A stretch of DNA of 64,000 nucleotides from a virus (lineage: Duplodnaviria; Caudoviricetes), in IMG/VR virus record IMGVR_UViG_2907158113_000012, positions 3,283-67,282 of that record. One strand, 5' to 3'. Numbering within the stretch: position 1 is the stretch's first letter; the number at the start of each line of letters is the position of its first letter. Shown here in pieces: positions 14,747 through 37,868 of the stretch. A program made the position numbers and the translations under genes. Under the pieces are notes generated by a model that was not told where the DNA came from, did not search any database, and saw nothing but the letters and a program-made list of their open reading frames with translations.

Positions 14747-14766
14747 TACGAAAGGAGTGAGCGGAC

Positions 14767-17034
14767 ATAGACGTTAAATTAACGCTTAATCTACGCAGTC
14801 CCACCGCAGCCGAAGCGCCGGAAGACGTAACGGAGCGCATAGCCAGCGCGACCAAACGTAAGAAAGCGGCGGAGGAGACGATAGCGGACGCTTGGATTCG
14901 CATACTCGCGCTAAAGAATACGGATGCCGATCGCGATAAGTTACTCGCGGTAAAAGACGCAATGGATACGGGTGTGACGGGCAGACACCCGTCCAGCGTC
15001 GGCAAGCGGTTCAGCAAGGCGGAGGCTATGCGGATTTACGAGGACTTACGCGTTTCGATCCGCGAGGAAAGATTGCGCAGCATGGTCGCGAAGACTCCGG
15101 CGAATTATTTCCTCATCGATAACGAGCGGCTACTCGCGCGGCTCAACGATAGACTACGCAAGGAAACGGAAGTTGCGGTCGATACGGAAACTACTGGAGT
15201 AGACGTTTACACAGACGTGATTGTCGGTCTGTCATTAACGTTGCCTTCCGTAAGCATTCCGCCGCTGGCCGAAAAGGGAATGCACGTCTACATTCCGGTT
15301 AGTCACGATGAAGGCGAACAGTTATCGCGAGATTACGTACTGCAGGAATTGCGTTGGTTCCTTTATAGTGCGGATATCGGCAAGGTTCTTCATAACGCTA
15401 TATTCGATATCGCGATGTTCCGGCGACACGGTTCGGATCTGCGCGGGGTAATTTGGGATACGATGGTCGCGATGCACTTACTTAACGAGAACGAACCATC
15501 GTTCCGTCTCAAAGACTTAGCGCCAAAATATCTCGGAGTTGAGTCAGACACATTTGCGGAGTTATTCGGCAAGACGCCGTTTAACGAAATGCCGCTAGAC
15601 ATTGCGCTGGCTTACGCGGCAAAGGATACCGACCTAACCTGGCGTATGTATCAATTTCAGCGCAAACACTTCGCCTCGCTTCCGACCGTGCTCGAATACT
15701 ACGAGACGGTTGAGGTGCCGCTGCTCTACGTAATCGTAGATTTGGAGGCTAACGGATATATCCTCGACTTAGATTTCGCGAAAGAATACGGTGAGCAACT
15801 GAGCGCTCGCGCCAAAGAGCTGCACACGAAGCTGATCGGAGTCCTGGCGAAACATCACGAAGGTGACGGCGAGCTTAATCTCAATTCTACGCCGCAGATG
15901 AAGGCGGTTCTCTCGAAAGAAATCGGCCGCGACATTCCGAATATGGACGCGAAGAAGACGCTCAAACCGCTGGGCCGTGAGTTCGAAATAATCGCGGACT
16001 TACTCGAATACCGCAAGATAACGAAGCTCAGCGGAACTTACATTGACGCGCTGCCAACGAAGCAGAATCCGACGACTAAGCGCTGGCACTCGCGGTTTAA
16101 TCCGATGGGAACCGTCACTGGCCGCTTTAGCTCCGGCAAAGACGAGGATGCTGCGGATTCCAACCAATTCAACGTTCAGAACCAGCCGGAGGAAGCGCGT
16201 AAGATGTTCCTTGCGCCGGCGGGAAAGGTCTTAGTATCTGCGGACTTTAAGGCGCAAGAGATACGCTGTACCGCGTACATGTCCGGCGAGCCCGTGCTAA
16301 TCGAAGCGTTCGAAAAGGGAATTGATCCGTACGCTAACATGGCGAGCATGTACTACAAGCGCCCTTATCACGAAGTTTACAAGCTGCCGAACGGGGAGGA
16401 TACACCAGAACGTAAAGCGATGAAGGTCGTATGGCTCGCGACACTATACGGGATGAGCGACTTCTCACTCGCGGACATGCTCGGACTAAAGAAACCGGAG
16501 GCGACCGCGTTTAAAGAAGAGCTGTTCGGAAGCATGCCGAAGTTATCCGCGTGGCTCAAGGCTAACGAAGAACACGTCGCCAAGTACGGTTTCGTTTGGG
16601 CAGATAAGCAGCAGCGTAAACGGCGCTTGCCTGACGGAAAACTTAAGCGCAAAGAAATCCCGTACGGTAAGTGGAACGATCCGAAGTACGAAGAGTGGCG
16701 CAAGCATAACGGAAAGATTAATCGTGCTATGCGCCAAGGTACGAATGCTCGCGTTCAGGGGAGTTCCGCCGTTCAAACGAAAGTAACGATGATTAAAGCG
16801 CACGAAGCGTGTGAGGACCGCGAAGGCTGGGCGCTTTGGGGGACGATTCATGACGAATTGGTGTTCGAGCTTCCGGAGGAATTTACGCGGGAGGACATCG
16901 CCGTTATTGAGCGCATTATGACGCAGTCGTATTCGTGGGGCAACGTAGCCAACGGAACGGATATCGCGATTATGCTGCGCTGGGGTAAAGGCGTAACGCC
17001 AGACGAATGGTTCAAAAATAAGGAGGCTGCGTAA
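14767..17034 (+). CDS. polA: DNA polymerase family A with 3'-5' exonuclease (probable ATA start)
   Basis: DTETTG, HNAIFD, TGRFSS, ADFKAQE, IHDE motifs; frame open back to ATA 14767 after AAGGAGTGA. Confidence 0.9.
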   Translation: MDVKLTLNLRSPTAAEAPEDVTERIASATKRKKAAEETIADAWIRILALKNTDADRDKLLAVKDAMDTGVTGRHPSSVGKRFSKAEAMRIYEDLRVSIREERLRSMVAKTPANYFLIDNERLLARLNDRLRKETEVAVDTETTGVDVYTDVIVGLSLTLPSVSIPPLAEKGMHVYIPVSHDEGEQLSRDYVLQELRWFLYSADIGKVLHNAIFDIAMFRRHGSDLRGVIWDTMVAMHLLNENEPSFRLKDLAPKYLGVESDTFAELFGKTPFNEMPLDIALAYAAKDTDLTWRMYQFQRKHFASLPTVLEYYETVEVPLLYVIVDLEANGYILDLDFAKEYGEQLSARAKELHTKLIGVLAKHHEGDGELNLNSTPQMKAVLSKEIGRDIPNMDAKKTLKPLGREFEIIADLLEYRKITKLSGTYIDALPTKQNPTTKRWHSRFNPMGTVTGRFSSGKDEDAADSNQFNVQNQPEEARKMFLAPAGKVLVSADFKAQEIRCTAYMSGEPVLIEAFEKGIDPYANMASMYYKRPYHEVYKLPNGEDTPERKAMKVVWLATLYGMSDFSLADMLGLKKPEATAFKEELFGSMPKLSAWLKANEEHVAKYGFVWADKQQRKRRLPDGKLKRKEIPYGKWNDPKYEEWRKHNGKINRAMRQGTNARVQGSSAVQTKVTMIKAHEACEDREGWALWGTIHDELVFELPEEFTREDIAVIERIMTQSYSWGNVANGTDIAIMLRWGKGVTPDEWFKNKEAA

Positions 17035-17036
17035 TT

Positions 17037-17678
17037 ATGGCGATATCACAAGCGAAGAAACTCGAACTTATCACGAAGCACGCGAAGAAATTTACGGTTA
17101 AGCCGGGCGGAGGCACTCCCGTACTAGAAGGCGTACGTTACCTCGATGATGGATCCGTAGTCGCAACGGATCGCCACACGCTGTTACGGATCGGCGGCGC
17201 GCATAACTTTGCGGAGGCATTCACGTCTCACGCTAAAACAGGCGCGCCCGTTGACGGTCAGTATCCGGACACTTCGCGCTTAATTCCGATGGAGTTTACG
17301 TCCCAAATTACGTTAAGCGCCACGAACTTGAAGGACTCGATTGCCTGCGTAAAGGTGGCGCTTGAAGCCGCGAAACTATCCGCCGGCGATAGGCGGAATC
17401 TCGCGCTACTTAGGTACGCGGACGATGCCGCCACACTCTCCGTTACGAGCGATAATCCTACGCTGACGTTTAGCGCAGGAATCAACGCGGACCTATTCGG
17501 GCCGGATATGGCGGTTGCGTTCAACGCGGAGTACATGCTTAACGCGCTTAACGTATTCAAGGACGCGGGATCTCAGCGTGTGATTATCGGATTGAGCGGC
17601 AATTTACAGCCGATCATTCTGCGCGATGAAGATAACGAGATCGACGTAATTGTGCTTCCGTATCGGATCGCGTCATGA
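17037..17678 (+). CDS. Beta sliding clamp-like protein, about two domains
   Basis: VATDRHTL, GQYPDTSRLIP, AFNAEYMLNAL, VLPYR motifs resembling DnaN domains II-III. Confidence 0.8.
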   Translation: MAISQAKKLELITKHAKKFTVKPGGGTPVLEGVRYLDDGSVVATDRHTLLRIGGAHNFAEAFTSHAKTGAPVDGQYPDTSRLIPMEFTSQITLSATNLKDSIACVKVALEAAKLSAGDRRNLALLRYADDAATLSVTSDNPTLTFSAGINADLFGPDMAVAFNAEYMLNALNVFKDAGSQRVIIGLSGNLQPIILRDEDNEIDVIVLPYRIAS

Positions 17679-17893
17679 GGGCGCCGTTACTCACCGAAGA
17701 CGACTACGCCGACCTCCGCGCAGCCGTCCGCCAATACGTAAGCTGCGCGATTGATAACGGAGATTACCCGGAGTATCCGGATGAGGCGGCGGAAACATTT
17801 TGCGCAGACTATCGCGTGGATTACGCACGGCTCGGCGATATGGTCGAGCGGATAATAAACGAGGAGGTTATACGTTATGGAAAACGTTATTGA
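17675..17893 (+). CDS. Hypothetical phage protein
   Basis: ATGA overlap. Confidence 0.55.
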   Translation: MRAPLLTEDDYADLRAAVRQYVSCAIDNGDYPEYPDEAAETFCADYRVDYARLGDMVERIINEEVIRYGKRY

Positions 17894-18230
17894 TAAGCTG
17901 CGCGAGTTAGAGGCGAAGGCTTCCAGCTACTATAGAATGGTCGGGGATGATGACTGGCGCGAGATTGACGATATTCTCGACGCCTACAAGCCGGAAGGCT
18001 ACGAGATAGACGAAGTAGAATCGCGGCAAGGCGAGGGAGGCCGTTGGACTACGCGAGAAATTACTACGTACAAGATTACGCAGACTGACGGGAAGGTTGC
18101 GCACTTTAAAATCGACCGCGAGTGTCCGGCTACGGAAATGCAGGAAGGCGGAGACTTTGCGTTCGAAATATGGGAAGTAGTTCCGCGCGAAGTCACCGTT
18201 ACAAAATACATTCCGGGGAGGGCTGCGTAA
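17877..18230 (+). CDS. Hypothetical phage protein
   Basis: RBS GAGGAGG. Confidence 0.7.
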   Translation: MENVIDKLRELEAKASSYYRMVGDDDWREIDDILDAYKPEGYEIDEVESRQGEGGRWTTREITTYKITQTDGKVAHFKIDRECPATEMQEGGDFAFEIWEVVPREVTVTKYIPGRAA

Positions 18231-18556
18231 TGGCATATCGAAAGATTAAGGTTCCCGTTTGCCCGCAGTGTGGCACAGAGATTGTAAACGGATATTGCTA
18301 CGATTGTCGTTGCTTATGTCAGATGGTTAAACGAGACCGATGCCAAGCGTCTGGAAATTTTACAGTAGTCGACTGGTTTTCATCACGATCGAGTGCTGGT
18401 CTTATCTTAGAAGATACGGACGGTAACCGATATCCGATCTATATGTCTGATGTGTTTATGCATTTGAACGGTACGGATTTCAGAAGCCTGACGCTTGAGG
18501 AGACTAAAAAGGGATCCGCGTACGGATGGAAGATAATTACGAAGGAGGCGGCTTAA
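18230..18556 (+). CDS. Cys-rich phage protein
   Basis: CPQCG..CYDC; TAATG coupling. Confidence 0.65.
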   Translation: MAYRKIKVPVCPQCGTEIVNGYCYDCRCLCQMVKRDRCQASGNFTVVDWFSSRSSAGLILEDTDGNRYPIYMSDVFMHLNGTDFRSLTLEETKKGSAYGWKIITKEAA

Positions 18557-18557
18557 T

Positions 18558-19601
18558 ATTACGCAATCAATCGCTAATCAAATCGCGCAAGACTTTACGC
18601 AGTATCTTAATTCCTGGCATTCCGCACCGGAAGTATACGACGACGCACTCGACGCGCAGATTCACGCGTGGTATCAAAACGTCCTCACGGATAAATCGCG
18701 CAAGGTATGGCCTCCGCGTAATGTCCCGTACTTCTCGCCATCATCCGCTAACTCCGACCCGCGTGGACTCTACGAAAAGCTGCGCGGAGCTAAAAAGGAG
18801 CGCGCCGGTCAGCCTCCGCACCAAGGGCGCTGGACAAGACTCGGCACAGCGATCGGCGATACGATTCAGCGCGATATCTTATTCGCGGAGAAACATGATC
18901 GAGTCAGAGGAACTGGAAACCGTCCGCAGTTTACGTTTGAATACAACGAGCACCTCGAACCGATGTTCGAAGACTTCGCGAAAGTTGGCACGGTTATTGA
19001 ACATAGCGATAAGAAATTCGCGCTGTACGGAACGTGTGACGGCGTCATGAAATACGTTTCTGATGACGGAACGGTTTTACGCGTAGGTTTGGAGATCAAG
19101 TCCAAACAGGGAACGTATGCGCAAACTTCTGGCTACTCAACGCGCAACGGTCCAAAGGAAGACCACGTTAAGCAGTGCGTATGTTACTCGATTATGTACG
19201 GAACCGTCGCTGAGCCAATCGACTATTACGTTCTTCTTTACGTAAACGGATCGAAGAAAGGCTGGACCATGACGCCGGAAGAGTTCGCAAAGAATCCGGA
19301 TATCTGCGCGTTCGGACTGCACATTACGGACAAGATGCGCGCGGACATACTCGACCATTTCGCCGGAATTGTTGACGCTGCGGATAAAGGCGAGCCACCT
19401 ACGCTTGACCTCGATAAGTGGCTTTTTAATGACTTCAAGCGTGCGATTGCGCTATCTCTCTCCGCGGAAGAACTTGCGTCCCTACAGCGTAAGGTATCCG
19501 CGACATTACGGTCATCTCTACCGGATAAACAGAAACGTGATTATGCGGAGGCGCTGGCATTCATCGAGAGTGTACGCGCTGAAACGAAGGAGGCCGCCTA
19601 A
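18558..19601 (+). CDS. PD-(D/E)XK (Cas4/YqaJ-like) exonuclease (probable ATT start)
   Basis: FSPSS, GTAIG, GTCDG, LEIKSK, KQCVCY; 135 open codons upstream of first ATG, RBS AAGGAGG 9 nt before ATT. Confidence 0.8.
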   Translation: MTQSIANQIAQDFTQYLNSWHSAPEVYDDALDAQIHAWYQNVLTDKSRKVWPPRNVPYFSPSSANSDPRGLYEKLRGAKKERAGQPPHQGRWTRLGTAIGDTIQRDILFAEKHDRVRGTGNRPQFTFEYNEHLEPMFEDFAKVGTVIEHSDKKFALYGTCDGVMKYVSDDGTVLRVGLEIKSKQGTYAQTSGYSTRNGPKEDHVKQCVCYSIMYGTVAEPIDYYVLLYVNGSKKGWTMTPEEFAKNPDICAFGLHITDKMRADILDHFAGIVDAADKGEPPTLDLDKWLFNDFKRAIALSLSAEELASLQRKVSATLRSSLPDKQKRDYAEALAFIESVRAETKEAA

Positions 19602-19602
19602 T

Positions 19603-19869
19603 TTGCAGACACCGCAATCATACGTAATCGAATCCATACGCAATTTTGACGGAACCGCGCACGAACGCGAGGGTACGGAGAAAGGCCAGCGCGTAGAGAT
19701 CTTACGCTGCGGGGTCGGCGCGCCTATGCTCGTATGTTACCGCGATGACGGCAATAAGATTCTGCGGACATCCCCGATCGTCAGCATAGGAGGTACGTGG
19801 AAGTATCCGGGCGGACTCGTTGTCACTACGAAGAATACCGTTTACACATTCGGAAAGGGGGCGGAATAA
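19603..19869 (+). CDS. Hypothetical phage protein
   Basis: TTG after AAGGAGG; ends TTKNTVYTF. Confidence 0.6.
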   Translation: MQTPQSYVIESIRNFDGTAHEREGTEKGQRVEILRCGVGAPMLVCYRDDGNKILRTSPIVSIGGTWKYPGGLVVTTKNTVYTFGKGAE

Positions 19870-20081
19870 TGACTAAACGTATAATTAACGGAATCCTCTA
19901 CGTGTTACTTATTGGCGCGCTAATGGTCGGCGGTTTCGTGTGGATTACGTTGCTAACCGGAGGTCCGTGGTACATGACCGTAATCTTCGCAATCATGGCG
20001 CTGGCCGCGTTTTCACTCGGATATTCAGCGGAAGGAGGCGGAAGCGATCGCAGCAAAGACGAAGAAACCCGCGCTTCCTAA
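19869..20081 (+). CDS. Small two-TM membrane protein
   Basis: Two hydrophobic stretches; TAATG coupling. Confidence 0.6.
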   Translation: MTKRIINGILYVLLIGALMVGGFVWITLLTGGPWYMTVIFAIMALAAFSLGYSAEGGGSDRSKDEETRAS

Positions 20082-20604
20082 CTTCCGTGTTCTCGGACTC
20101 GACTTATCGCTAAGTCCCGGAATCGCTGTGGTAGAGGTTCGAGGGCGCACGCCCTACCTCATCGCATGTGATTCCGTAGCGACTTCGACCGCCGATACGG
20201 ACGCCGTACGCAACTACACGGTCGAAACGTTTGTCGGTCACTTCGTTCGGGAGCATCGTCCGTTCGATATCGTAGTTCGCGAAGACTTTACGTCCGGACG
20301 GAATAAACGCGCGACTCAAACGATATTCAGCGCATGGGCAGCGGCAGACAGAGCGCTCGCGGCGTACGGATATTACGCGGAGGACTTGAAGCCCGCGCTT
20401 GCCCCAACGTCGGTTAAGAAATACGTAACCGGCAACGGGAAGGCGGAGAAACCGGAAGTCGCGGAAGCGGTGCGGAAGTACCTGCGGTTGCCTGCGGATA
20501 CTAAGTGGCGGACGGGATACGATGACGCGGACGCATGCGCAGTGTGTCTGTCGTATTTACTGCGCGAGAACCTAATCGATGAAATCGGAGGGATTGCGGC
20601 ATGA
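20047..20604 (+). CDS. RuvC-like Holliday junction resolvase (probable ATC start)
   Basis: RVLGLDLS, VVRE, PTSVKKYVTGNGKAEK, DDADA; the first acidic motif lies upstream of any ATG/GTG/TTG. Confidence 0.85.
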   Translation: MAAKTKKPALPNFRVLGLDLSLSPGIAVVEVRGRTPYLIACDSVATSTADTDAVRNYTVETFVGHFVREHRPFDIVVREDFTSGRNKRATQTIFSAWAAADRALAAYGYYAEDLKPALAPTSVKKYVTGNGKAEKPEVAEAVRKYLRLPADTKWRTGYDDADACAVCLSYLLRENLIDEIGGIAA

Positions 20605-20786
20605 GGGAATACATTGGATATACACACATTTCGCAGGGAGTTGAGAGCTTTGGTCCGGCGGTTAGCGAAGCGCTGAGCGGTTACGCAAATAGCGGGTACG
20701 ACATTGACGTACATTACTCGCAATCGACGGAACCTCGCGGACGTATTATGTTCTCAGCGTTAATAACCGCCTGGACGCAGACATGA
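20601..20786 (+). CDS. Hypothetical phage protein
   Basis: RBS GGAGG, ATGA overlap. Confidence 0.55.
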   Translation: MREYIGYTHISQGVESFGPAVSEALSGYANSGYDIDVHYSQSTEPRGRIMFSALITAWTQT

Positions 20787-20935
20787 CGCGTATTCCAGAC
20801 CGCCTCACTACGCAACTCGAACGCGCCCAGCTCGCCGAGATCGCGGAACTTGAACGTGCGGTCGAAGTGCATCGCGGACTGGCGGCGAAGTATGAACGGA
20901 AACTAGCGGAGGCACAACGGAGAGTTAGCGATTAA
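20783..20935 (+). CDS. Small coiled-coil protein (50 aa)
   Basis: ATGA overlap, ends inside terminator. Confidence 0.45.
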   Translation: MTRIPDRLTTQLERAQLAEIAELERAVEVHRGLAAKYERKLAEAQRRVSD

Positions 20936-20959
20936 TTTCGCCGACTCTCCGTTTTTTTT
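20916..20959 (+). terminator. Intrinsic terminator
   Basis: AACGGAGAGT..ACTCTCCGTT stem plus T8. Confidence 0.8.
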
Positions 20960-21043
20960 CGTTTAATTTTAACGTTTTGGTGCGGGAGCTCTTACTCATT
21001 ACGGATATTAACATATAAGACGCGGACGACGAAAAAAGTTTCC

Positions 21044-21092
21044 GTAAAAGTGTGCGGGACTTCCGAGCACGTCGGCTTTATCTATGTAAGGC
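21044..21092 (+). promoter_or_regulatory. Second copy of 49-bp motif
   Basis: Matches 9075..9123; follows a terminator and precedes an operon. Confidence 0.7.
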
Positions 21093-21131
21093 GCAGATGC
21101 CGCGCAATATAAACGAGGAGGCGGTTCAGTA

Positions 21132-22028
21132 ATGACAACGCAACAATATCGCGAAGTTAAACGTAAGGCAGCGGTGGGAGAACGCGTAAGAGTCTTCGGT
21201 CACCACGATAACAAGCAGAACACGGAGCATGTCGTATTGCGTACGGAGGATAACGGTCACATTTTCTACGCGGCAGGCGGACGTCTACCAGGAGGATACG
21301 TAGTCCTCGAACCAATCGCAGAGCCCGCCGCACCTTCACCGCTATCGACCGATCCCCTCTACGCCGCCTTCCGCCAGTTCGTCACGGACAATGCGGATGA
21401 ATTGCGAAAGTTACTTCCGGAGATTAATCCGCCGGCACACGCGCCATTGTTTACGGTTGCTGACGGTAAACTCGCGCCGATTACTCCGAAGTTGGCCCGC
21501 GCACAGGTTATCGCGAAGGCGACTGCTGACGTTACGGAGTTGCTGCGGACTGGGCTCGATGATGACGCGTTTCTGAATGAGGACGGACACTTTCACGGCC
21601 GTTGGTTCGATGTCACGTTCGTGGTTAATCGCGAGAAGAGAGCGGTCACAGCGCTTATATACGAATTGGACGGATTCGCATATAAGCGAAAAAGTGGCGG
21701 TCCTCACGCGAAGTTCACCGCAAAGTGTTCGCCAGCCGACGTATTCCACGCGGAAATCGGCAAAGCGATCGCGCTACGTAAGGCGCTTGGGCTGACGGTG
21801 CCTAACGAATATACGGACGCGCCGCAACCGGAGAAGGCGGAAGTTGGCGCTATAATCGAATACGACAGTTGCCGCGTAAACGTCATGCCTGTAAATCCGC
21901 ATGTCATATACGCGTACCGGATTAAAGGCACGTGCAGCGTGCGAAGTACCGTCGCTAATGACGGGAAAATACTCGACGACACCGACGTTGACTATAGCGC
22001 TGTCTCCGCGAAGGGAGTTGCTGCCTAA
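21132..22028 (+). CDS. Modular phage protein, paralog of 24053..25642
   Basis: YREVKRKA.VGE..YVVLEP and AKC.P..F.A.IG.AIAL..ALG modules. Confidence 0.75.
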   Translation: MTTQQYREVKRKAAVGERVRVFGHHDNKQNTEHVVLRTEDNGHIFYAAGGRLPGGYVVLEPIAEPAAPSPLSTDPLYAAFRQFVTDNADELRKLLPEINPPAHAPLFTVADGKLAPITPKLARAQVIAKATADVTELLRTGLDDDAFLNEDGHFHGRWFDVTFVVNREKRAVTALIYELDGFAYKRKSGGPHAKFTAKCSPADVFHAEIGKAIALRKALGLTVPNEYTDAPQPEKAEVGAIIEYDSCRVNVMPVNPHVIYAYRIKGTCSVRSTVANDGKILDDTDVDYSAVSAKGVAA

Positions 22029-22255
22029 TGGATCGCGCAATGATTAAGCGTCTTATGACGCTACAAATGATTACGCAAGCATACGAAAAGCTCGGCGGTA
22101 ATGTCAGCGATCTTACCACGGAGCGCATGGCGCAGAGTATTGTACCGTTATTCGAAGCCGCACCAATACGTACGGATGCAGAGAAGCGCGCTAGTCTCGA
22201 AGCGCTATTTCACGAAACGGTAGCGGAGATTATATTCGCGAAGGAAGTGGCGTAG
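22028..22255 (+). CDS. Hypothetical phage protein
   Basis: TAATG coupling. Confidence 0.55.
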   Translation: MDRAMIKRLMTLQMITQAYEKLGGNVSDLTTERMAQSIVPLFEAAPIRTDAEKRASLEALFHETVAEIIFAKEVA

Positions 22256-22257
22256 TT

Positions 22258-22944
22258 ATGGCGTCGGCTGAACGCATCATCGACCGCCCGCAAGTCGAAA
22301 TCATGGCGGACAGAAAACGTAAGCGTACGGAGATGCTCGATAAATTACGGAGGGGTGAGCGGAGAGTGGAACGCAGTAACGCAGTCAACGTTAAGATAGC
22401 GCTATTACCTGGCGCAGAGTTGCCGCAATACGCTAAGCCGAACGATAGTGGCTTCGACTTAGTGGCACAAGAGGATTACGTAGTCGAACCGGGTCAAACG
22501 GTCAAGGTGCGGACGGGTATCTGCGTAGAGCTTCCGGTCGGCTACGAATTGCAGGTGCGGCCGCGTTCGGGAATCAGCGCTAACACGAAGTTGCGCGTAG
22601 CTAATTCGCCAGGCAGCGTAGATAATTCGTATCGCGGAGAGATTTGCGTATTGATCGATAATATTGCGCAAGTTGAATACGACGTCGTGCGGGATGAAGA
22701 TACAAACGCTATGACTGGCGTTGAGGTGGCGCAATCTGGCGCGGCTGATACGTTAGATGGCAGTTATGTGCTCGGAGTGTTCCCGCAAGGAACGTATATC
22801 ATCCGCAAAGGTGATCGAATTGCGCAAGCAGTTATCGCGCCAGTCTACCTCGCAGCCTTCGAAGTCGTCACGGAATTAGCGGAGAGCGAGCGTGGGGCTG
22901 GCGGATTCGGACATAGCGGAGTACGGACGGAGGCGAGCGTATGA
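22258..22944 (+). CDS. dut: Trimeric dUTPase (start may be GTG 22366)
   Basis: SGFDL, RPRSG, GSVDNSYRGE, GDRIAQ, RGAGGFGHSG. Confidence 0.92.
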   Translation: MASAERIIDRPQVEIMADRKRKRTEMLDKLRRGERRVERSNAVNVKIALLPGAELPQYAKPNDSGFDLVAQEDYVVEPGQTVKVRTGICVELPVGYELQVRPRSGISANTKLRVANSPGSVDNSYRGEICVLIDNIAQVEYDVVRDEDTNAMTGVEVAQSGAADTLDGSYVLGVFPQGTYIIRKGDRIAQAVIAPVYLAAFEVVTELAESERGAGGFGHSGVRTEASV

Positions 22945-23299: not shown

Positions 23300-23551
23300 A
23301 TGACTACGCAACAAACCGCACAAATAATCCCGTTCCCATGCGTTCAGAACGAAATCGCCGCGGCATTCGACGCAATGGCAGCGCAGGCACGCGCCGGCCT
23401 AATCACCGGAGCCATGTTCGCAATTAGCGGACCGAACGCCGATCCACACGCAATTATGACGGGATGGCACGGCGTTGATATAGCCGAGCGCTCCGTAATG
23501 CTGACGCATATGCAATTCGATTTAATCGCGGGCTTCATCGGAGAGGAGTGA
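23300..23551 (+). CDS. Hypothetical phage protein
   Basis: RBS GAGGAGG. Confidence 0.6.
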   Translation: MTTQQTAQIIPFPCVQNEIAAAFDAMAAQARAGLITGAMFAISGPNADPHAIMTGWHGVDIAERSVMLTHMQFDLIAGFIGEE

Positions 23552-23555
23552 TTAC

Positions 23556-24056
23556 GTAGATATCCGCATATTACTCGCGTTAATATTCGCGGCAACATCA
23601 CTAAGCGTTGGGCTCACGGACTCAACGGGCAAGATTCCGTCAGCGCCTACGCAAGAAATAACGCAAGTATCACCGCAAGTTACCGCCGAAGCTACGCCAA
23701 TAGCTACGCGGGAAACTACGGAGGAACCGGCCGAGTGGACAACGTTCGAAGCGACCGCTTATATCGCGCTGTGCGATACGGGCTGCAGCGGGTTTACAGC
23801 TACGGAATATGACGTACGCCACACGGTTGAATACGAAGGCCGCCGAGTAGTTGCGGTTGATCCTGCGGTGATAGCGCTCGGCACAGCGGTCGAAGTACGC
23901 ACGGCTGACGGATCGATTATCGAAGCGATTGCGCTCGATACAGGCGGCGCGATAAAGGGACGCAAGATTGACGTATTGATGGCGGACCTTGATGACGCAT
24001 GGGATTTCGGTAGGCAGGCGGTACAAATACGCATCTTAAAGGAGACGGTTAAATGA
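23556..24056 (+). CDS. Secreted 3D-domain protein (lytic-transglycosylase-like); non-canonical start at 23556 or 23562
   Basis: Signal-like IRILLALIFAA, then FEATAY..VAVDP..ALDTGGAIKGRKIDV. Confidence 0.75.
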   Translation, partial: VDIRILLALIFAATSLSVGLTDSTGKIPSAPTQEITQVSPQVTAEATPIATRETTEEPAEWTTFEATAYIALCDTGCSGFTATEYDVRHTVEYEGRRVVAVDPAVIALGTAVEVRTADGSIIEAIALDTGGAIKGRKIDVLMADLDDAWDFGRQAVQIRILKETVK

Positions 24057-29621: not shown

Positions 29622-29686
29622 CGGTCAGTCAAGCTTGATATAGAATAGAAGGAACGCCAATACAACGATAAAAGGGGCGGATTACT

Positions 29687-30097
29687 ATCGGATCAGTAAA
29701 AATTGACGTAGACAAAGGCGCACGCATGTACGAAGTTAAATACGCATTGAACTCGGCGGATGGCGTTAAAAAACTACTTCGCGATCGCCATCATATAAGT
29801 AGCGCACGTTTTCAATCTGGCGACTATAACGCCGTAGATATGTTGGTCGACTTGAGTAGCGCTATTAATTCGGCGGGGCTCTCGGAAGTTCAGGCAGAAG
29901 TAGTTGCGTGGATATCCGGAGCAGATATGACGCAGCAACAGACGTCCGAGATCATGCATGTAACTCGCCAGGCAATTACAAAAGCTTACGAGGTGGCGTG
30001 CGAAAAAATAGCGGCCGTCTACCGCAAATGGGAATATGGCGAGGTTTGCGTAGGCTACCTGCTAGAGGACGAAGACTACGAAGGGGAGGCGGCTTAA
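29687..30097 (+). CDS. Sigma region-4-like HTH protein (ATC 29687 or ATG 29726 start)
   Basis: MTQQQTSEIMHVTRQAI HTH; RBS AAGGGG 9 nt before ATC. Confidence 0.7.
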   Translation: MGSVKIDVDKGARMYEVKYALNSADGVKKLLRDRHHISSARFQSGDYNAVDMLVDLSSAINSAGLSEVQAEVVAWISGADMTQQQTSEIMHVTRQAITKAYEVACEKIAAVYRKWEYGEVCVGYLLEDEDYEGEAA

Positions 30098-30756
30098 TGA
30101 CGAAAACCTATCGGGAAGATTTCGCAACGGCTGTCTCTACGATGGAGTCCACGATGTGGTCATCGTTTAAAGCGGAAGGCGCGCCACCGATACCGTTTAT
30201 TTACGGAGGGCGTACGTTTGACCTGCGTAAAAGAGATGAACGCGGAGATGCGGCTCGTGTTGTTACGGACACTTACGTGAGGGAACACGCGGAGTTTAAT
30301 GACGCGGCTATGAGTAGATACCGAGAGCGCGGAGGTACTGGCGAGGGTCCTGCGGTCGTATTGACGGATGCCGCGCTTCTTGAGCGTATAGCTAACGTAA
30401 TCCTTTACGATGAGATTGCGGACGAGAATCCGTATAAATCGCAGCATAACGAGTATCCGATTATGAGCGAGATTCAACTCGCCCGAAGGCGCGAAGGAAA
30501 GCACCAAGGCAAGCGCGAAGGCGTCTCCGCGCGAGAGGTAGCGTTTGGGCAGGCGTATTCTATCGGAACGGACGGAAGGAGCTACGCTGAACCTATCCGC
30601 AGGGAGCGCTCGAATAAGGAAAATATCTTTATGGACGAGGCGACTACTTCGCGAGTAAGAGAGCAGCGCGAGGCGTACGCAGACTTCATCGCTGAGAAGC
30701 CCGTAGTCACCTATGTGATGTCTCAGGCAGAAAGGGAGGCTAGAGGATGGCAGTAG
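30097..30756 (+). CDS. Hypothetical phage protein
   Basis: RBS GGGGAGG, TAATG coupling. Confidence 0.7.
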   Translation: MTKTYREDFATAVSTMESTMWSSFKAEGAPPIPFIYGGRTFDLRKRDERGDAARVVTDTYVREHAEFNDAAMSRYRERGGTGEGPAVVLTDAALLERIANVILYDEIADENPYKSQHNEYPIMSEIQLARRREGKHQGKREGVSAREVAFGQAYSIGTDGRSYAEPIRRERSNKENIFMDEATTSRVREQREAYADFIAEKPVVTYVMSQAEREARGWQ

Positions 30757-31406
30757 CAATCACGATGCCTACCGACACCCTGACGATTCCTATTGCGGAC
30801 GTCGGGAGTGTCCTCGAAGCGCTGCGGTTTCGTCCGGGAGGAGTATACGTGTTCTATGACGGGCTCGGCGAGTGCTTATACGTCGGTCAGTCGAAGACAC
30901 TTCCGGACAGACTGCGCAAACATCTAACGTCTTCTCCCTTCGCACATGAGATCGCCAGTGTTACGCTCTATTTCGTAAGTGATCCGTATGAGCGAGAAAT
31001 ATACGAGACTTACGCGATCACTACATTTAACGGCAAGTATAATCGAGCGAAAAAGTTCGAGCAACGCACGGCTAATCCGTTGGTCAGCGAGGAGATTGAC
31101 GAGGCGTATTTCGAGATAGACGAGCTTATGCGTGAAAAGAACGACCTTGATGCGGCCATTAAGGATATAGATGAGCGACACATAAGGAGACCGCCGCGTA
31201 GAAAAATTAACCGTAGGGGATACCTTACTCGGAGATACTTGGAGTATTTAGCGGAAATGTCCGAGCGCACCGAGGAGGAAAAAGCGGAGATGTGGAGGGA
31301 GCAGTGTGAGAGAAAAAGAATGGTGAGGAGGGTGGTAGAAATTGACTCGGAATTTCGAGAAATTAAGGATAAAATAACCCGATTATTACGAAAATTAGCT
31401 GTTTAA
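30747..31406 (+). CDS. GIY-YIG nuclease-domain protein
   Basis: GVYVFY..LYVGQS..L..RL..H..E..I..YN. Confidence 0.8.
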   Translation: MAVAITMPTDTLTIPIADVGSVLEALRFRPGGVYVFYDGLGECLYVGQSKTLPDRLRKHLTSSPFAHEIASVTLYFVSDPYEREIYETYAITTFNGKYNRAKKFEQRTANPLVSEEIDEAYFEIDELMREKNDLDAAIKDIDERHIRRPPRRKINRRGYLTRRYLEYLAEMSERTEEEKAEMWREQCERKRMVRRVVEIDSEFREIKDKITRLLRKLAV

Positions 31407-31471
31407 AAAGTTGCTTTTTATCGGGTTTCTTATCGGGATATATGTAATCCTATGAAGGATTTTTCGTTCTT

Positions 31472-31500
31472 AGATCGCGCTGTCTCAGGCGGTCTTTTTT
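31472..31500 (+). terminator. Intrinsic terminator
   Basis: AGATCGC..GCGGTCT plus T-run. Confidence 0.55.
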
Positions 31501-31579
31501 GCGCGTTTTTGGAGGAATACGAATGTTGCGGGTATACTCCGCACGTCCTTACGTTATTTTAACGACGAGGAGACGAATA

Positions 31580-32461
31580 ATGAATAACGGATACATGCAC
31601 GTTTATTACGACGAAGCGCTCGGACAGTACCGCGAGAGTTATCCGGTCGATGGCTACGTGCACGAGTCGGTCGAATCACGCAGGCGCAAACAGGAATACG
31701 CGCAGCGTGAGGACGCTAGAACGCGTAATACGCGCCATTACATAACGTCCTACCACGAGCCCGTCCGCGAGCTTGCGCTTATGCTTGAAATCAACGAGCT
31801 CGGCGCGATTATGAAGCTCATTCCTTATATGAGACGGGATAAGGGCGGCGATCTATTCGTAGAGAGTAAGCGGATGGGGATCGCGGAGATTGCGAAGGCA
31901 GTCGGTAAGGCTCAGCGTTGGGCCGAGGGCGTAGTTAAAACGCTGGTTACCTGTGGAGTCTTGACGGAGAAAAAGGACGGCCGGCGAAAGGTATACGGAG
32001 TAAATCCGGCATACCATACGATGGGCGAGACGGTGCCTGGCGCACGTTACACGAAAGTATATCAGACAAAAACGAGATCGGACGTTAAGAACCTTTCGGT
32101 TCAAGCGGCCGGTCTTTTATATTGCATGATTCCGCACATACACTACGAGCGCCTATACCTCGTACACAATCCGGATGAGCGCGATTACGATGCGCTGCAG
32201 CACATGAGGCAGGCGGACCTGGCCCGCGCTATTGGCGTAGAGGAGCAGACGGTAACACGCGCGATGAAAGAGCTCAGCCGCTGCGGATTCGTGATGCGTT
32301 CGGAAGCTTACGGGGCTATCGTTATTAAGATGAATCCGGACGTAATGTACCGTAAGAAGTATGATGACGATGAATATACGCAGGGAGTACGTTACGAGTT
32401 CGAGCAGAACGCGAAGGCGGCGGAGTCGTTCGGATTGACTGACGCTGATCTTCCGTATTAA
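31580..32461 (+). CDS. Rep-like protein with two winged-HTH domains
   Basis: IAEIAKAVGK..VNP and QADLARAIGV..MNPDV tandem HTH pattern like RepL-type initiators; direct repeats follow. Confidence 0.65.
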   Translation: MNNGYMHVYYDEALGQYRESYPVDGYVHESVESRRRKQEYAQREDARTRNTRHYITSYHEPVRELALMLEINELGAIMKLIPYMRRDKGGDLFVESKRMGIAEIAKAVGKAQRWAEGVVKTLVTCGVLTEKKDGRRKVYGVNPAYHTMGETVPGARYTKVYQTKTRSDVKNLSVQAAGLLYCMIPHIHYERLYLVHNPDERDYDALQHMRQADLARAIGVEEQTVTRAMKELSRCGFVMRSEAYGAIVIKMNPDVMYRKKYDDDEYTQGVRYEFEQNAKAAESFGLTDADLPY

Positions 32462-32464
32462 AAA

Positions 32465-32516
32465 CGTTCCATATACTGCGGAGTTAGGGCGATTTCGTTC
32501 CATATACTGCGGAGTT
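32465..32516 (+). repeat. Two 21-bp direct repeats (iteron-like)
   Basis: CGTTCCATATACTGCGGAGTT at 32465 and 32496; partial ATATACTGCG at 32586. Confidence 0.85.
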
Positions 32517-32915
32517 CAAAAGTGGCTTCGGCCTTAGAGCGGCGTGGGTTTGAGGCTGTTTTGGGGTCGGGGCAACTCTTATCTTATATACTGCGTAATA
32601 AGACGCCTAATGATTACGGAGAAGAGCGCTCCGACACTGCGGCTAAAACCGTGCCTTGTGTAACTGTTATCTTAACTCCGCTGATCTTTAATAAAAGCTT
32701 GAGCGCAGTTAAATAACATGTTCCGAAGACGCGACAGCGGCAAGGTGTGAAGCCTGCTTTTGGCTGAACAGGCACTATGTTGAAACCTTTGTCTGATAGA
32801 TACATGAAGCTTAATCGAAGAAGTATCTCATGTAGACAACACAAAGAATAGCGCGGATGTTAAAGCGCTAGTAAGCGCGAAGCGAACGTACAGTGAGCGG
32901 AGGGATAACGTTAAT

Positions 32916-33113
32916 ATGAGCGTTATAGTAGGCGAGGATATCGCGAGAGATGCGGATAACGAACGTGTGATTAAGCGTTATTCAGGCGGAATTGTACCTC
33001 CGGACGATAACGGTAACTACGTAAGGGTACATCGCGATGATTACGTATCTCACGATTATGCGCGTAAGTTAATAGCGCAGACTTTGTATAAAACGGAGGG
33101 GTCACGCATATGA
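32916..33113 (+). CDS. Hypothetical phage protein
   Basis: RBS GGAGGG. Confidence 0.55.
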   Translation: MSVIVGEDIARDADNERVIKRYSGGIVPPDDNGNYVRVHRDDYVSHDYARKLIAQTLYKTEGSRI

Positions 33114-33280
33114 ACGATTTATCAACGGTAAGTACAGCGGCTTTACAAGCGGAGTTATCACGTAGGGAAGGCGTTACGACTTACGTATTTGGGCCGGAGG
33201 ATAACGTTGTTCTAGCTAGCGGAGATGGCGTTATATTAGATGACTACGGACCTGTTACGATTACTGTTAACGTAGATTAA
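33110..33280 (+). CDS. Small phage protein (BC1881-like)
   Basis: LSTVSTAALQAELSRREGV motif; RBS GGAGGG. Confidence 0.6.
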   Translation: MNDLSTVSTAALQAELSRREGVTTYVFGPEDNVVLASGDGVILDDYGPVTITVNVD

Positions 33281-33402
33281 ACGTAACAGTTGACGTTGTT
33301 CTTACGCTTTGCCCGAGCGTATGAGCAACGTTTAAAGTACGTAAGTATAAGCGTTAGGGTAGCGTAGATGATCGTTAATTCAACGGAAGGGAGACGGTTA
33401 TA

Positions 33403-33810
33403 ATGGCGAAGACATTAACGCCCGAACAGTATATCGCGATCGAATGGTTGTCTATACCGGGTAAAGGCGGTAAGACATACGAAGAGATAGCGGACATATG
33501 TGACGTGCACTTTAATACGCTCGGTAACTGGCGCAAGGATAAGGCGTTCGATGCGGAGCTTAAGCGTGCGATTGTACGGAACAATAGCGCTAAGCTGCCG
33601 GAAGTAGTCGAGTCTATGGCGGATTGGGCTATACGGGAGGGTAACGCAGCAGCAGCGAAGTTAGTCCTGCAGATTAACGGAATGCTTATGGATAAACTCG
33701 AAGTGGAGACGAAGCTTGATAGCGGAACAGACGTAGCCGCGTTGACAGCACGTATCAAGGCGTTGCAGGTGCGTAAGGGTGACGAGGATGGCGCGGACTC
33801 ACAAGGATAG
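33403..33810 (+). CDS. Terminase small subunit-like HTH protein
   Basis: TYEEIADICDVHFNTLGNW HTH, GNAAAAKL; upstream of TerL. Confidence 0.75.
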   Translation: MAKTLTPEQYIAIEWLSIPGKGGKTYEEIADICDVHFNTLGNWRKDKAFDAELKRAIVRNNSAKLPEVVESMADWAIREGNAAAAKLVLQINGMLMDKLEVETKLDSGTDVAALTARIKALQVRKGDEDGADSQG

Positions 33811-34503
33811 CGCGTGGTGTGCGCATATAATGAAGGAACGCGATGGATGACGGTGTGATTGCGTGTGAACTGCGCCTATTTAGTCTGCACGGGTCGCCTG
33901 ACGCGCACCCTCCGCAAAACTTTCGGACTTCACCGTAGTACAGCGGATTTAACGTTGCATAAGCGTTGTATAAACGTATGGATAGGCGCTGAACTAGCGC
34001 TGCATAAACTGGAAACGGGACATCGCGTTAAATGGCGTTAAGCCGCGTGGCTACAACGTTCTTGCTGCGCGGGTACTGGTAAATGTATATACGTTGCATA
34101 CGGCGTGTTTATGCACCGCGTACGAACCGCGTAGTGGTGCGGGCTGGCGGCGTTGACATCTGCATCATATACGTATTTTGTGCACATGTCTTGCATAAAC
34201 GTTGCATAATTTAATCTATTTTATTTACTTCAATGCTTTAGTGCTGTGAAGCCCCAACGCCCCAAAGCAATAAAGTGAATTCTGGTGCTACAGATTTCCG
34301 CGTATCAAAAATAACGTTTGGGTTTCGGAGCATCAACGCAGCCTCACGTAATTTCACCGTTAAATCACCGTCGAATTAGCGCGCCTACCTCTTTCCGAGT
34401 ATAAGCGGAAGGGTCCCGTAGTTCAAGCGCTAATTCAACGGTAAAATCACGAAGCACTCAAGGCGCGGTCTTTTCGTGCCTACGCGGAAGGGAGGCGATA
34501 TCT

Positions 34504-36285
34504 ATCGCATGGATTGACGGTAAATGGAACGGGCGAGACGAACGCAACACGGTAATCAGCGGCATTAACGGACTCATTGATTCGTTGGCCGGCGTAGATA
34601 TCGCGTCTCTTTCGGAAGAAGATCAGCGCTTGATCGACGAACAGGTTGCGGAGCTTGAGCGGTTAGAGCGTATTAACCGTTGCGAACGTAATCTACTCGA
34701 ATTTTCATTAGAGTATTTCTCGGAAGCGCGCAATCCCGGCAATGACGGTAACTGGGACGGATTCGATATTGCAGATATATCGGAAGCGCCCGATTTTCAC
34801 CGTGAAATCGCCGAGATAATCGACGACATATCTAACGTTAACCTTAACGATAAGGTAGCGGTCGCAGCGCCCCGTTCACACGCGAAATCAACGTATTTAT
34901 CGAAGGCGGAACCCTTACGCGAGATCGTTTACCGCAAACGTAAATACGAAATCATCATATCAGAGACGCCGGCGGTATCCAGCGCTAACCTCGATTGGAT
35001 CGCGGCACAGTTAAAGAGTAACGCGAAGCTGCGGGCGGACTTTGGACCGTTATTATCACCGAAGCAGCAAGAAAATCCGAAGGATAACAGCTCAGAGTTT
35101 ATCGCATGGGAACCGCGCGAAGACGGAACAAAGAAGCTACTCACGAAAGTCGAAGCGGCATCAACGGGACAGGCGCTACGTGGACGTAACTGGAACGGAG
35201 TACGCCCAGACTTAATTATCTGCGATGACCTCGAAGACATTAAATCTAACGCCGCAACTCCGGAACTTCGACGCAAGCTTAAAGACTGGTTCGCACAAAC
35301 CGTCGTACCACTCGGTGATCCGCGCGGTAAGAAGACGGCGTTTATCTACATGGGAACAACGGTGCATCACGAAGCATTGCTCGTTGACGTGCTATATAAT
35401 CGCTCGGACTTTAAGAGCCGCGTATATCGCGCAATTAAGACGTGGCCTGAGCGTATGGACTTATGGGAAGCGTGTCGACTCGTATATAAAGATCCGGACT
35501 TACCGAAGGAACAGCGTGTCAAGGATGCGCAGGCCTTATACGAATTGAATCGCGCTGAAATGGATCGTGGAGCCGTCGTATTGTGGCCGGAAGCACAGCC
35601 GATATGGACGCTAATGACGTGGAAATGGAATAACGGAAGCAAGGCGTTTAATACGGAGTATATGAATAATCCGGTCGATGAGGAATCAATGATATTCAAT
35701 CCGGAGACATTCACGTATTGGGATAGCGACCAGTTAAAAGACGCGCTATCGCAATATCCGCGACCGGCTGACGCAGTTTACGATATTTACATGGGCGTTG
35801 ACTTCGCGATGGGCAAAACACGCGGAGACTATAGCGCTATTGTCGTAATAGCACGCGATAAACAGACGGGAACAAAATACGTTATTGACGCGTTCGGTGA
35901 ACGGATAAAGCCGGACGCTTTTTTGCGTGTAATCGTAGAGAAGGCGCTACGGTTTCAACCGAACGCAATCGCAGCGGAAGCACAAGCGGCGCAAGAGTTC
36001 TTCGTAACGCAACTAAAGACCGCGCTTAAAACTGCGGGATATCCGGCGCAAACTCGCGTCAAGGAAATATACCAACGTTCGCGTAAGGGGCTGCGGATTG
36101 AGGCGTTAATGCCGGCGGTTGAAAGCGGAGAAATCCAATTCTCACGGAAGCACGCGCTTTTACTTGAGCAATTCGAAATGTATCCGACAGGAACGCATGA
36201 CGACCTCCCGGACGCTTTGGAAATGGCGGTCAGCATCGCGAAAACAGGACGCAAGAAGATACGCAATAAACCATCCGGAATGTAA
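34504..36285 (+). CDS. terL: Terminase large subunit (probable ATC start)
   Basis: APRSHAKST, IICDDLED, MGVDFA, HDDLPDA; RBS GGAGG 8 nt before ATC. Confidence 0.9.
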   Translation: MAWIDGKWNGRDERNTVISGINGLIDSLAGVDIASLSEEDQRLIDEQVAELERLERINRCERNLLEFSLEYFSEARNPGNDGNWDGFDIADISEAPDFHREIAEIIDDISNVNLNDKVAVAAPRSHAKSTYLSKAEPLREIVYRKRKYEIIISETPAVSSANLDWIAAQLKSNAKLRADFGPLLSPKQQENPKDNSSEFIAWEPREDGTKKLLTKVEAASTGQALRGRNWNGVRPDLIICDDLEDIKSNAATPELRRKLKDWFAQTVVPLGDPRGKKTAFIYMGTTVHHEALLVDVLYNRSDFKSRVYRAIKTWPERMDLWEACRLVYKDPDLPKEQRVKDAQALYELNRAEMDRGAVVLWPEAQPIWTLMTWKWNNGSKAFNTEYMNNPVDEESMIFNPETFTYWDSDQLKDALSQYPRPADAVYDIYMGVDFAMGKTRGDYSAIVVIARDKQTGTKYVIDAFGERIKPDAFLRVIVEKALRFQPNAIAAEAQAAQEFFVTQLKTALKTAGYPAQTRVKEIYQRSRKGLRIEALMPAVESGEIQFSRKHALLLEQFEMYPTGTHDDLPDALEMAVSIAKTGRKKIRNKPSGM

Positions 36286-36305
36286 ACGAAAGGAGGACGA
36301 TTAGC

Positions 36306-37868
36306 ATATCGAAGCTATTCGAACCCGGCGCTTATTACCCGCCACCTGCACACATACCGCGCCTCGCCAACTATAAACGCGGCAAGACGATATTCGACGG
36401 ACGCCATCCGGAAATCTACGATCGCGCCTCGTCTCTACTAAAGGATACGCCACACGCCGCGCAGCTTAAAACGCTGTTCATCGCGGTTAACTTGATGGAT
36501 ATATTGCTGACGAAGCCGGCGGATTTGCTGACCGGAGAGCCCCCGACATACGAAGCGGGAACCGGCGCAGGTACACGCGAGCAGGAACGCCTTGACTCGA
36601 TCGTTGAAGAAAACGACTTAACGCAGATGGTTCACGAAATGGTAATCGGCGCAGGCTATCGGGGCGACTCGTTTATTAAGACGTATTATGACGCGCGAGC
36701 GGACGTCAGTGAAACGGAGGCACTCGGATTAGAACCGCCGAAGCCCGTACTCGAACCAATTATCGAATCTGTACGCGCGGATATCGTATTTCCAGAGTTG
36801 TCGACCGGCTCGCGGAAGAAATTTAAGGCGATTAATATCGCGTGGGTCGATTGGGTTGAGGAACCAGGCGGAAAAATTGTCCGTTGGCTCTACGGTAAAG
36901 CTGCATCCTATGTGCCTTATCTCGTCGTTGAGCGCCATATTCCGGGCTATATCGTACATGAGCGTTATGAGCTTTCGGAGGCTGGCGTTAACAGCGATTG
37001 GGGAGTTCCAATTTCAACGTATTTAATCGGCGATAAAATTGCGACAGGACGCGAGGAAGACATAGAGCCTACCGGAACTGACCGATTACTCGTGCACCAT
37101 ATTCCGTATAAAAGCGTTGACGACCGTTGGGAAGGCATTAACGGAGTTGAGAAGCTAGAAAGCGTACTGAGCGCGATTAACGAGCGGTTAGTACAGATCG
37201 ATTATATCCTTTGGAAGCACAGCGACCCGTGGATGTATGGACCGGAAGACATCGGAGATGACGGCGAAGACAATGCGGGAACACTCCGCGGAGGCGGACG
37301 TTATATACCGGTTGCCAAGGAAGACGCGACGCCAGGTTACATGGTATGGGAAGGTCAGCTAACCTCCGCTTTTACGGAACTAGACGTACTACTCGGACTC
37401 GTGTACCAAATGTCGGAAACGCCGCAATGGTTATTCGGAACAACGCTTGCCTCAGATAAGGGCGGAACCGGCACGTCTCATACGGATAGTGGCGCAATTA
37501 AAGCGCGCTTCATGCCGATATTAGCAAAAGTTAACCGTATCCGCGCGCATGTTGATCGCGCTTTACGTGACGCAATATGGACCGCCATGCAACTCGAAAA
37601 CTACGCTAATAAAGACGTTGCCGGCTTCGTAAAGTACGATCCTGTTTACCCGAAGATCGAGTGGAGAGACGGGATTCCGTCCGATCCCAAAGAGGAAGCT
37701 GAGGTCTATCAGATACGCACAGGGGGAAAGCCTACGATCGACGTGCTCAGCGCGGTTAAACGATTGGACTCTATGTCAGACGCCCAAGCCGTAGAGGTAG
37801 TCAGCAGGATTGACGAAGACGAGCAGAAGGCGACCGGTACAGTAGACGCTTCTGTTTTTAATAGTTAG
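36306..37868 (+). CDS. Portal protein (probable ATA start)
   Basis: Follows TerL; frame open 62 codons upstream of first TTG; AGGAGG 9 nt before ATA. Confidence 0.85.
   Translation: MSKLFEPGAYYPPPAHIPRLANYKRGKTIFDGRHPEIYDRASSLLKDTPHAAQLKTLFIAVNLMDILLTKPADLLTGEPPTYEAGTGAGTREQERLDSIVEENDLTQMVHEMVIGAGYRGDSFIKTYYDARADVSETEALGLEPPKPVLEPIIESVRADIVFPELSTGSRKKFKAINIAWVDWVEEPGGKIVRWLYGKAASYVPYLVVERHIPGYIVHERYELSEAGVNSDWGVPISTYLIGDKIATGREEDIEPTGTDRLLVHHIPYKSVDDRWEGINGVEKLESVLSAINERLVQIDYILWKHSDPWMYGPEDIGDDGEDNAGTLRGGGRYIPVAKEDATPGYMVWEGQLTSAFTELDVLLGLVYQMSETPQWLFGTTLASDKGGTGTSHTDSGAIKARFMPILAKVNRIRAHVDRALRDAIWTAMQLENYANKDVAGFVKYDPVYPKIEWRDGIPSDPKEEAEVYQIRTGGKPTIDVLSAVKRLDSMSDAQAVEVVSRIDEDEQKATGTVDASVFNS

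Follow-up and report, generated by a model that had tools for sequence, protein, structure and literature searches.

Putative near-cognate AUA, AUC and AUU start codons behind extended Shine-Dalgarno sequences in a 67-kb Caudoviricetes genome, with a conserved AUC start in the large terminase

Translation initiation at AUA, AUC or AUU codons (here AUH, or ATH when written as DNA) has been described in a few bacterial systems. In a report on Staphylococcus aureus (PMC13009471), all the AUU and AUA starts lie behind extended Shine-Dalgarno (SD) sequences and give about 10% of the output of an AUG reporter, with one gene reaching up to 30% of it in rich medium. A study of Enterococcus faecalis ebpA (PMC4447247) describes an ATT start that lowers expression. 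Initiation at such codons in other Bacillota is weaker than at AUG by several-fold to about ten-fold. For Escherichia coli, a preprint (bioRxiv 063800) attributes to AUA, AUC and AUU only 1–2% of AUG output, reports an N-terminal methionine on an AUC-started protein and lists AUU starts for infC and pcnB. The present analysis concerns starts of this kind in a window of 64,000 nucleotides (the whole stretch of DNA analyzed), which corresponds to bases 3283–67282 of the single 67,282-base IMG/VR record IMGVR_UViG_2907158113_000012 (Duplodnaviria; Caudoviricetes), classed as a complete provirus and carrying nearly all the genes of the window on the + strand.

Seven + strand genes of this window presented a GGAGG-type ribosome-binding site followed by ATA, ATC or ATT, with no ATG, GTG or TTG for the next 13–135 codons; in one of them, the gene of the 3D-domain protein, GTA competes with ATC for the start. 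A stop-to-stop scan for long open stretches preceding the first ATG, GTG or TTG returned long start-less stretches in exactly the genes that had been named in an earlier note, made from the letters of this DNA, and the codons, SDs and distances reported there for the seven sites were confirmed. Each gene is given below together with its SD, the spacer from SD to start, and the first canonical codon.

14753–17034, + strand: family A DNA polymerase (Pol) and its SD; start ATA 14767, 755 aa; AGGAG core at 14753–14757, spacer 9 nt, frame open from 14761, first canonical codon ATG 14962, 65 codons on.
18544–19601, + strand: Cas4-like exonuclease (phrog_1706) and its SD; start ATT 18558, 347 aa; GGAGG at 18544–18548, spacer 9 nt, first canonical codon ATG 18963, 135 codons on.
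20034–20604, + strand: RuvC-like resolvase and its SD; start ATC 20047, 185 aa; GGAGG at 20034–20038, spacer 8 nt, frame open from 19984, first canonical codon GTG 20128, 27 codons on.
23544–24056, + strand: 3D-domain protein with a hydrophobic N-terminus, and its SD; start GTA 23556 or ATC 23562; AGGAG at 23544–23548, spacer 7 nt to GTA or 13 nt to ATC, first canonical codon GTG 23868, about 102 codons on.
29673–30097, + strand: sigma-factor-like helix-turn-helix (HTH) protein (phrog_3512, Sigma70_r4) and its SD; start ATC 29687, 136 aa; AGGGG at 29673–29677, spacer 9 nt, ATG 29726 located 13 codons on.
34491–36285, + strand: large terminase (TerL) and its SD; start ATC 34504, 593 aa; GGAGG at 34491–34495, spacer 8 nt, first canonical codon TTG 34585, 27 codons on.
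36293–37868, + strand: portal protein and its SD; start ATA 36306, 520 aa; SD AAAGGAGGA with its core at 36293–36297, spacer 8 nt, first canonical codon TTG 36492, 62 codons on.

None of the seven frames is broken or shortened, and the first canonical codons of these genes fall inside conserved sequence. The alignment of homologues, proposed by the earlier note as a check, revealed ATG, GTG or TTG, or again ATH or CTG, at the same codon in relatives, and a canonical start occupied the homologous codon in orthologues of Pol, the exonuclease, the sigma-like protein, TerL and the portal. When TerL and Pol were compared by tblastn with cultured phages, the matches began at query residues 1–4, and in phages Lietuvens and phi18-2 the Pol gene presented an ATG displaced by one codon relative to the ATA of the window, followed by the same peptide. 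Similarly, the PHROG alignments began at residue 2 of the sigma-like protein, residue 10 of the portal and residue 7 of the Cas4-like exonuclease, while the Pfam RuvC profile began at residue 16 of the ATC-started resolvase, in which the first canonical GTG is residue 28; the first catalytic aspartate of RuvC is expected in the stretch that a GTG start would lose.

Among the relatives, the homologous codon of Pol was ATA in 3, ATC in 2, ATG in 2, GTG in 2 and TTG in 3 of the 12 IMG/VR loci whose alignment began at residue 1, and the start with the best SD was ATH in 6 of the 28 loci examined. The sole SD-backed start of the exonuclease was ATT, ATC, ATA or CTG in 10 of 27 loci, TTG or ATG in 15 and ambiguous in 2, and relative L020 carries TTG at the homologous codon. 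For RuvC, the best-SD start was ATC, ATT, ATA or CTG in 10 of 26 related loci, and canonical orthologues started 6–12 codons further in. The homologous codon of the portal was TTG, ATG or GTG in relatives, and its best-SD start was ATA, ATC or CTG in 7 of 46 loci, among them the Paenibacillus larvae phage Tripp with a probable CTG; in the sigma-like gene, seven relatives presented ATC (2), ATG (4) or GTG (1). A pattern scan found no relatives of the 3D protein, and two were recovered by searching the relatives' records: one (L127) presents AGGAGG, 7 nt and ATC at the aligned codon, and the other (L128) has no canonical start either. These alignments indicate that the ATH codons are the true N-termini and act as genuine translation starts.

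The frequency of such sites was assessed with one criterion throughout, namely an open reading frame (ORF) of at least 150 codons whose first SD reached −11 kcal/mol or stronger, lacking both a canonical codon in the 25 codons downstream and an SD-backed one upstream. The phage yielded seven ATH calls, which represent six distinct sites, as one SD was counted in two frames, against 15 canonical calls; four decoy codon sets gave 0, 1, 0 and 1 calls, and both of these matches adjoin real sites. In contrast, a 380-kb stretch of Paenibacillus chromosome carrying a related prophage, used as the host control, yielded 94 canonical calls, no decoys and a single ATH call, which lies 153 codons inside its ORF (Fisher p = 1.1e-4). 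ATH starts behind strong SDs in the phage therefore exceed chance, and the habit is a property of the phage and not of its host. Five complete relatives gave 4, 3, 4, 1 and 2 ATH calls under the same criterion. In two relatives, an SD followed by ATC was also observed in front of genes coding for proteins of 319 aa (G001:C1, about 7204, − strand) and 223 aa (G003:C1, about 55564, + strand), which are either canonical or absent in the window.

The most extensive comparison concerned TerL, whose relatives were found mostly in Paenibacillus genomes, in addition to genomes of Cohnella, Fontibacillus, Brevibacillus, Neobacillus, Bacillus, Mesobacillus and Sporosarcina, and in cultured phages of Bacillus subtilis, Sporosarcina and P. 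larvae; megablast against GenBank phages gave no match, and the protein-mode search did find relatives. The TerL start was ATC in 35 of the 49 IMG/VR loci aligned from residue 1 (ATG 8, GTG 3, ATT 1, ATA 1, TTG 1) and in 27 of 32 named bacterial genomes (ATT 1, GTG 2, ATG 1, TTG 1), a set from which 2 of 34 loci had been dropped, one matching only from residue 50 and the other being a weak Chitinophagales match. The pool including GenBank phages comprised 88 sequences, reduced to 77 by the removal of duplicates and to 76 at full length, and in these 76 distinct relatives the start was ATC in 56, ATT in 1, ATA in 1, ATG in 11, GTG in 4 and TTG in 3, with ATC starts ranging from prophages of Paenibacillaceae to cultured phages of B. 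subtilis. In a quick maximum-likelihood tree, seven switches between ATH and canonical starts were counted, against a mean of 16.3 when the states were shuffled, and none of 500 shuffles was as low; ATH was kept across a clade of 70 rows, and a clade of 38 rows was ATH throughout.

Moreover, the start column was ATC in 56 of the 58 ATH rows (97%), whereas 14 conserved internal isoleucine columns of TerL averaged 46% ATC, none of them exceeding 89%. The number of codon changes across the same 58 rows was 2 at the start, 6–21 in the isoleucine columns and 11 in a neighboring alanine codon. This lower variation of the start C in relation to synonymous isoleucine sites argues that the third position of the TerL start is under selection and not merely inherited. 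A 5-bp stem between the bases following the SD and the TerL start codon could be paired in 92% of cells, with no pair changed on both sides; RNAalifold predicted nothing on the 58 TerL leaders and predicted the stem in a closer set of 17 sequences. The upstream arm of this stem is part of the extended SD and also precedes ATG-started relatives.

A separate conserved inverted repeat was observed at 34365–34444 of the window, about 60–140 nt upstream of TerL, with outer arms ACCGT..ATTAGCG and CGCTAAT..ACGG around a variable inner hairpin that has TATAAG in its loop. Folding of 34350–34530 gave z = −3.4, and the outer stem was retained in 14–15 of 17 relatives. The repeat may serve as a late promoter or operator, as a site of packaging or as an RNA element.

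Regarding how these codons would be used, the tail of the host's 16S rRNA ends in the usual Bacillota anti-SD in all three host genomes analyzed, and ARAGORN found no tRNA gene in the window or in the whole phage genome. Given that these unusual codons are those known classically as near-cognates of AUG, and that no tRNA is encoded by the phage, initiation by the host fMet-tRNA is the simplest reading; a private tRNA or an altered code was rejected, with neither a tRNA gene nor an Rfam match in the window. The unusually long and strong SD duplex would hold the host 30S subunit while the initiator fMet-tRNA pairs imperfectly with AUA, AUC or AUU 8–9 nt downstream, so that the proteins would begin with methionine at the positions listed above. 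The weak starts would act as a built-in throttle that reduces the yield of proteins needed in small amounts, or harmful when the prophage leaks, and would dose down TerL, RuvC, the Cas4-like exonuclease, the polymerase, the wall-hydrolase-like 3D protein, the sigma-like regulator and the portal. We consider it probable, with good confidence, that these are genuine near-cognate starts which operate by the ordinary initiator tRNA and an extended SD and which throttle dosage. The methionine N-terminus, the lower yield, the IF3 sensitivity and the cause of selection are what we infer, yield and IF3 sensitivity from the S. aureus and E. coli work and from the start of the host infC.

The identity of the genes involved is compatible with such dosing. 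Most of the ATH products either are nucleases or could, if expressed leakily, harm the lysogen or set off the lytic programme, and the set includes a polymerase with a 3′-5′ exonuclease domain. The expectation of the earlier note that low dose is plausible for these genes was borne out by the presence of nucleases, a polymerase, a cell-wall-hydrolase-like protein, a sigma-like regulator and a portal; its description of them as core replication genes as a class failed, as the helicase, the primase, the TerS-like protein and the major capsid protein start with ATG. Two DNA methylases and one tail protein start with TTG. The ATH genes are also longer, with a median of 347 aa against medians of 128–148 aa for canonical genes grouped by start codon (p = 0.016).

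The SD duplexes of the seven ATH genes presented a median of −16.1 kcal/mol against −12.05 kcal/mol for 86 canonical genes (permutation p = 1e-4), that of TerL being the strongest in the genome (−19.4 kcal/mol); this comparison favors the reading proposed here but is partly circular, as ATH starts behind weak SDs would have escaped notice, and the circularity is one of several points that weigh against that reading. Simple attenuation leaves unexplained the preference of TerL for ATC over ATT and ATA, and the portal is not obviously toxic or required at very low dose. The start of the 3D gene is ambiguous, GTA having a good spacer and ATC one of 13 nt. The start codon switches often among relatives for Pol, the exonuclease, RuvC, the portal and the sigma-like gene, a pattern that, judged from the alignments, fits tuning and equally near-neutral drift. 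Finally, the case is made here from sequence, for the phage and its relatives alike.

Near-neutral drift is the alternative that survives best, although it is rather unlikely. It holds that a long SD makes the identity of the start codon matter little, so that ATG, GTG, TTG, ATH and CTG interconvert and the cluster in this genome arose by chance. The flipping of Pol, exonuclease, RuvC, portal and sigma-like starts among close relatives would be expected from it, as would the finding that relatives hold one to four such genes, not always the same ones. However, host genes read by the same ribosome show one ATH against 94 canonical starts, the strongest SDs belong to the ATH genes, and the TerL codon, ATC in nearly all the ATH rows, changed less than any of the 14 synonymous isoleucine columns.

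It is more doubtful that the near-cognate starts compose a regulon gated by IF3, responding jointly to host IF3 or to a phage modulator and unlocking at a set stage. The autoregulation of infC by IF3 is established, and the host infC itself starts with ATC or ATT behind GGAGGTGGA in three of three Paenibacillus genomes, so that IF3-type discrimination against these codons probably applies in the host. The hosts also carry a second IF3-like gene and, in the S. aureus report, one AUA start shifted its efficiency with the medium (PMC13009471). On the other hand, the phage-encoded initiation modulator predicted by the earlier note was not encountered: in addition to the absence of tRNA genes, the Pfam profiles IF3_N, IF3_C, eIF-1a (IF1) and Ribosomal_S21 had no match in the phage at E up to 1, with positive controls. 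A modulator of an unfamiliar type is possible among the many unannotated small ORFs. The coordinated control layer that the earlier note supposed fared no better, as the start codons of different genes switch independently among relatives; for example, two loci (L059 and L060) combine a portal ATC with a TerL ATG, whereas most loci combine a portal TTG with a TerL ATC. The ATG starts of the helicase, the primase and the TerS-like gene also stand against such a regulon.

With similarly little confidence, it may be proposed that this prophage lineage reads the initiation fidelity of its host by means of the conserved AUC of TerL and of the AUH, ACG or CUG starts on nucleases, polymerase, sigma factor and portal, these genes being translated well, like the host infC, only when IF3 activity per ribosome drops, and the second IF3-like paralogue of the hosts might contribute to this reading. 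If it were true, induction or a given physiological state would act at translation to unlock replication and packaging. The paralogue was observed as a second, weaker IF3_C match (46–54 bits) in all three host genomes of Paenibacillus that were searched (G006, G007 and G008); in G006 (L156, G006:C4:5151501-5154000) it is an ATG-started frame with an IF3-like N-terminal stretch, distinct from infC.

Initiation at the downstream canonical codons, with the open upstream stretches left untranslated, is very improbable. These codons are the ones chosen by gene callers and GenBank annotators, as in phage 268TH007, whose TerL is annotated from an ATG 105 codons down and thus short by that length. Nevertheless, a truncated RuvC would lose the beginning of its Pfam domain, relatives that have ATG at the same codon preserve the protein sequence of the N-terminal stretches, and the strong SDs precede the ATH codons and not the downstream ones. 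Both 268TH007 (L088, ON210834.1; 1753, 3524) and phi18-2 (L123, OR208547.1; 1638, 3409) present an SD followed by ATC at TerL and at the portal. The TerL of phi18-2 is annotated 25 codons too long, from a TTG that lacks an SD, and the portals of these two phages, although near-identical, are annotated from an ATG 64 codons and a GTG 14 codons downstream of the ATC, respectively. In Tripp (L086, KT755656.1, about 3131), the probable CTG start of the portal lies 42 codons before the annotated GTG.

The weakest alternative, sequencing or assembly error or decaying pseudogenes of a dead prophage, could draw on the record being one assembly classed as a provirus and compared by means of contigs, and it is practically dismissed by the intact, full-length frames and by the return of the same ATH codons across dozens of assemblies made independently, cultured phages of B. 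subtilis among them. This recurrence, by which sequencing error was rejected, upholds the view of the earlier note that these are real non-AUG starts. Among Logan contigs from four runs, one of 67,723 bases was identical over 34400–36400 but may be the source of the record, and in three relatives' contigs covering the TerL start none of the 40 substitutions listed, out of 391, fell at 34504–34506. In isolate-type runs (X1, X4 and X5; window 34400–36400), the element was assembled as stand-alone contigs of 65.5–67.7 kb, about its full length. In view of its IMG/VR classification as a provirus, this stand-alone assembly may mean that the element is episomal or that contigs break at its ends.

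An eighth gene may belong to the weak-start set:

11829–12257, + strand: PD-(D/E)XK-type protein (phrog_5018); start uncertain, ACG 11844 or GTG 11835.

The earlier note had listed ACG 11844 as possible, and this proposal stood in part. The spacer to ACG is 10 nt, and the codon falls exactly on the ATG, TTG or ATC with which an M-A-H... N-terminus begins in relatives, one of which (L024) presents a strong SD, 8–9 nt (measured by eye) and then ACG in its homologue. Against it, an in-frame GTG lies three codons upstream, 1 nt from the SD core, and the Lietuvens homologue has TCG at the codon aligned with ACG 11844 and a GTG three codons upstream.

Other features of the window were also noted. 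Directly after the portal gene, a GTG-started protein of 324 aa (37882–38853) gave a weak match to a homing-endonuclease-associated repeat (25.4 bits, below the Pfam cut-off of 26). The overlapping frames 44956–45390 and 45303–45692, the latter open and without an early start, look like the usual −1 frameshift pair of tail chaperones; they are located just upstream of a 1260-aa gene (46098–49880) that is taken as the tape-measure gene by its length and position. Inside the tail-fiber region, 52001–54000 has a G+C content of 0.33 against about 0.50 elsewhere.

Consequences of these starts reach beyond this genome. Standard gene callers and GenBank records shorten or mis-extend essential phage proteins, which distorts protein databases and structure predictions. 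The AUC of TerL, deeply kept and more conserved than synonymous sites, offers a clean natural case of selection for a weak start and suggests that temperate phages of Bacillota adjust the dose of nucleases through translation, and the cultured B. subtilis phages make the weak-start reading testable. In the literature search, outside which supplements lay, no description of ATH starts was found for this phage group; the re-annotation of SPP1 lists only AUG, UUG and GUG starts, and the annotators in PMC12007190 weighed only ATG, GTG, CTG and TTG.

Compared with the described systems, the phage genes are like E. coli infC and pcnB in having a near-cognate AUH start that would limit expression, and the infC of the phage's host also starts with ATC or ATT; in contrast to E. 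coli infC, the phage genes show no sign of an autoregulatory loop, and no phage IF3 was found. The likeness to ebpA of the Gram-positive E. faecalis (PMC4447247) lies in the mis-annotation at a downstream ATG, the true ATT of ebpA lowering its output, although that case is a single host pilus gene and the present one a set of phage genes. A further parallel is offered by infC, cvfC1, ccpN and citZ of S. aureus (PMC13009471), which share with the phage a Bacillota host, AUH at normal spacing behind a long and strong SD, and conservation of the odd codon in orthologues, and for which the effect is attenuation. They differ in being single host genes studied by Ribo-Ret and reporters, whereas here seven genes of one 67-kb phage are described from sequence, and TerL favors AUC, unlike the AUU and AUA of S. 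aureus. AUH starts with extended SDs were already known in Bacillota; new are how densely such starts occur in one small genome, the selected AUC that TerL shows across the lineage, and the mis-annotation that results.

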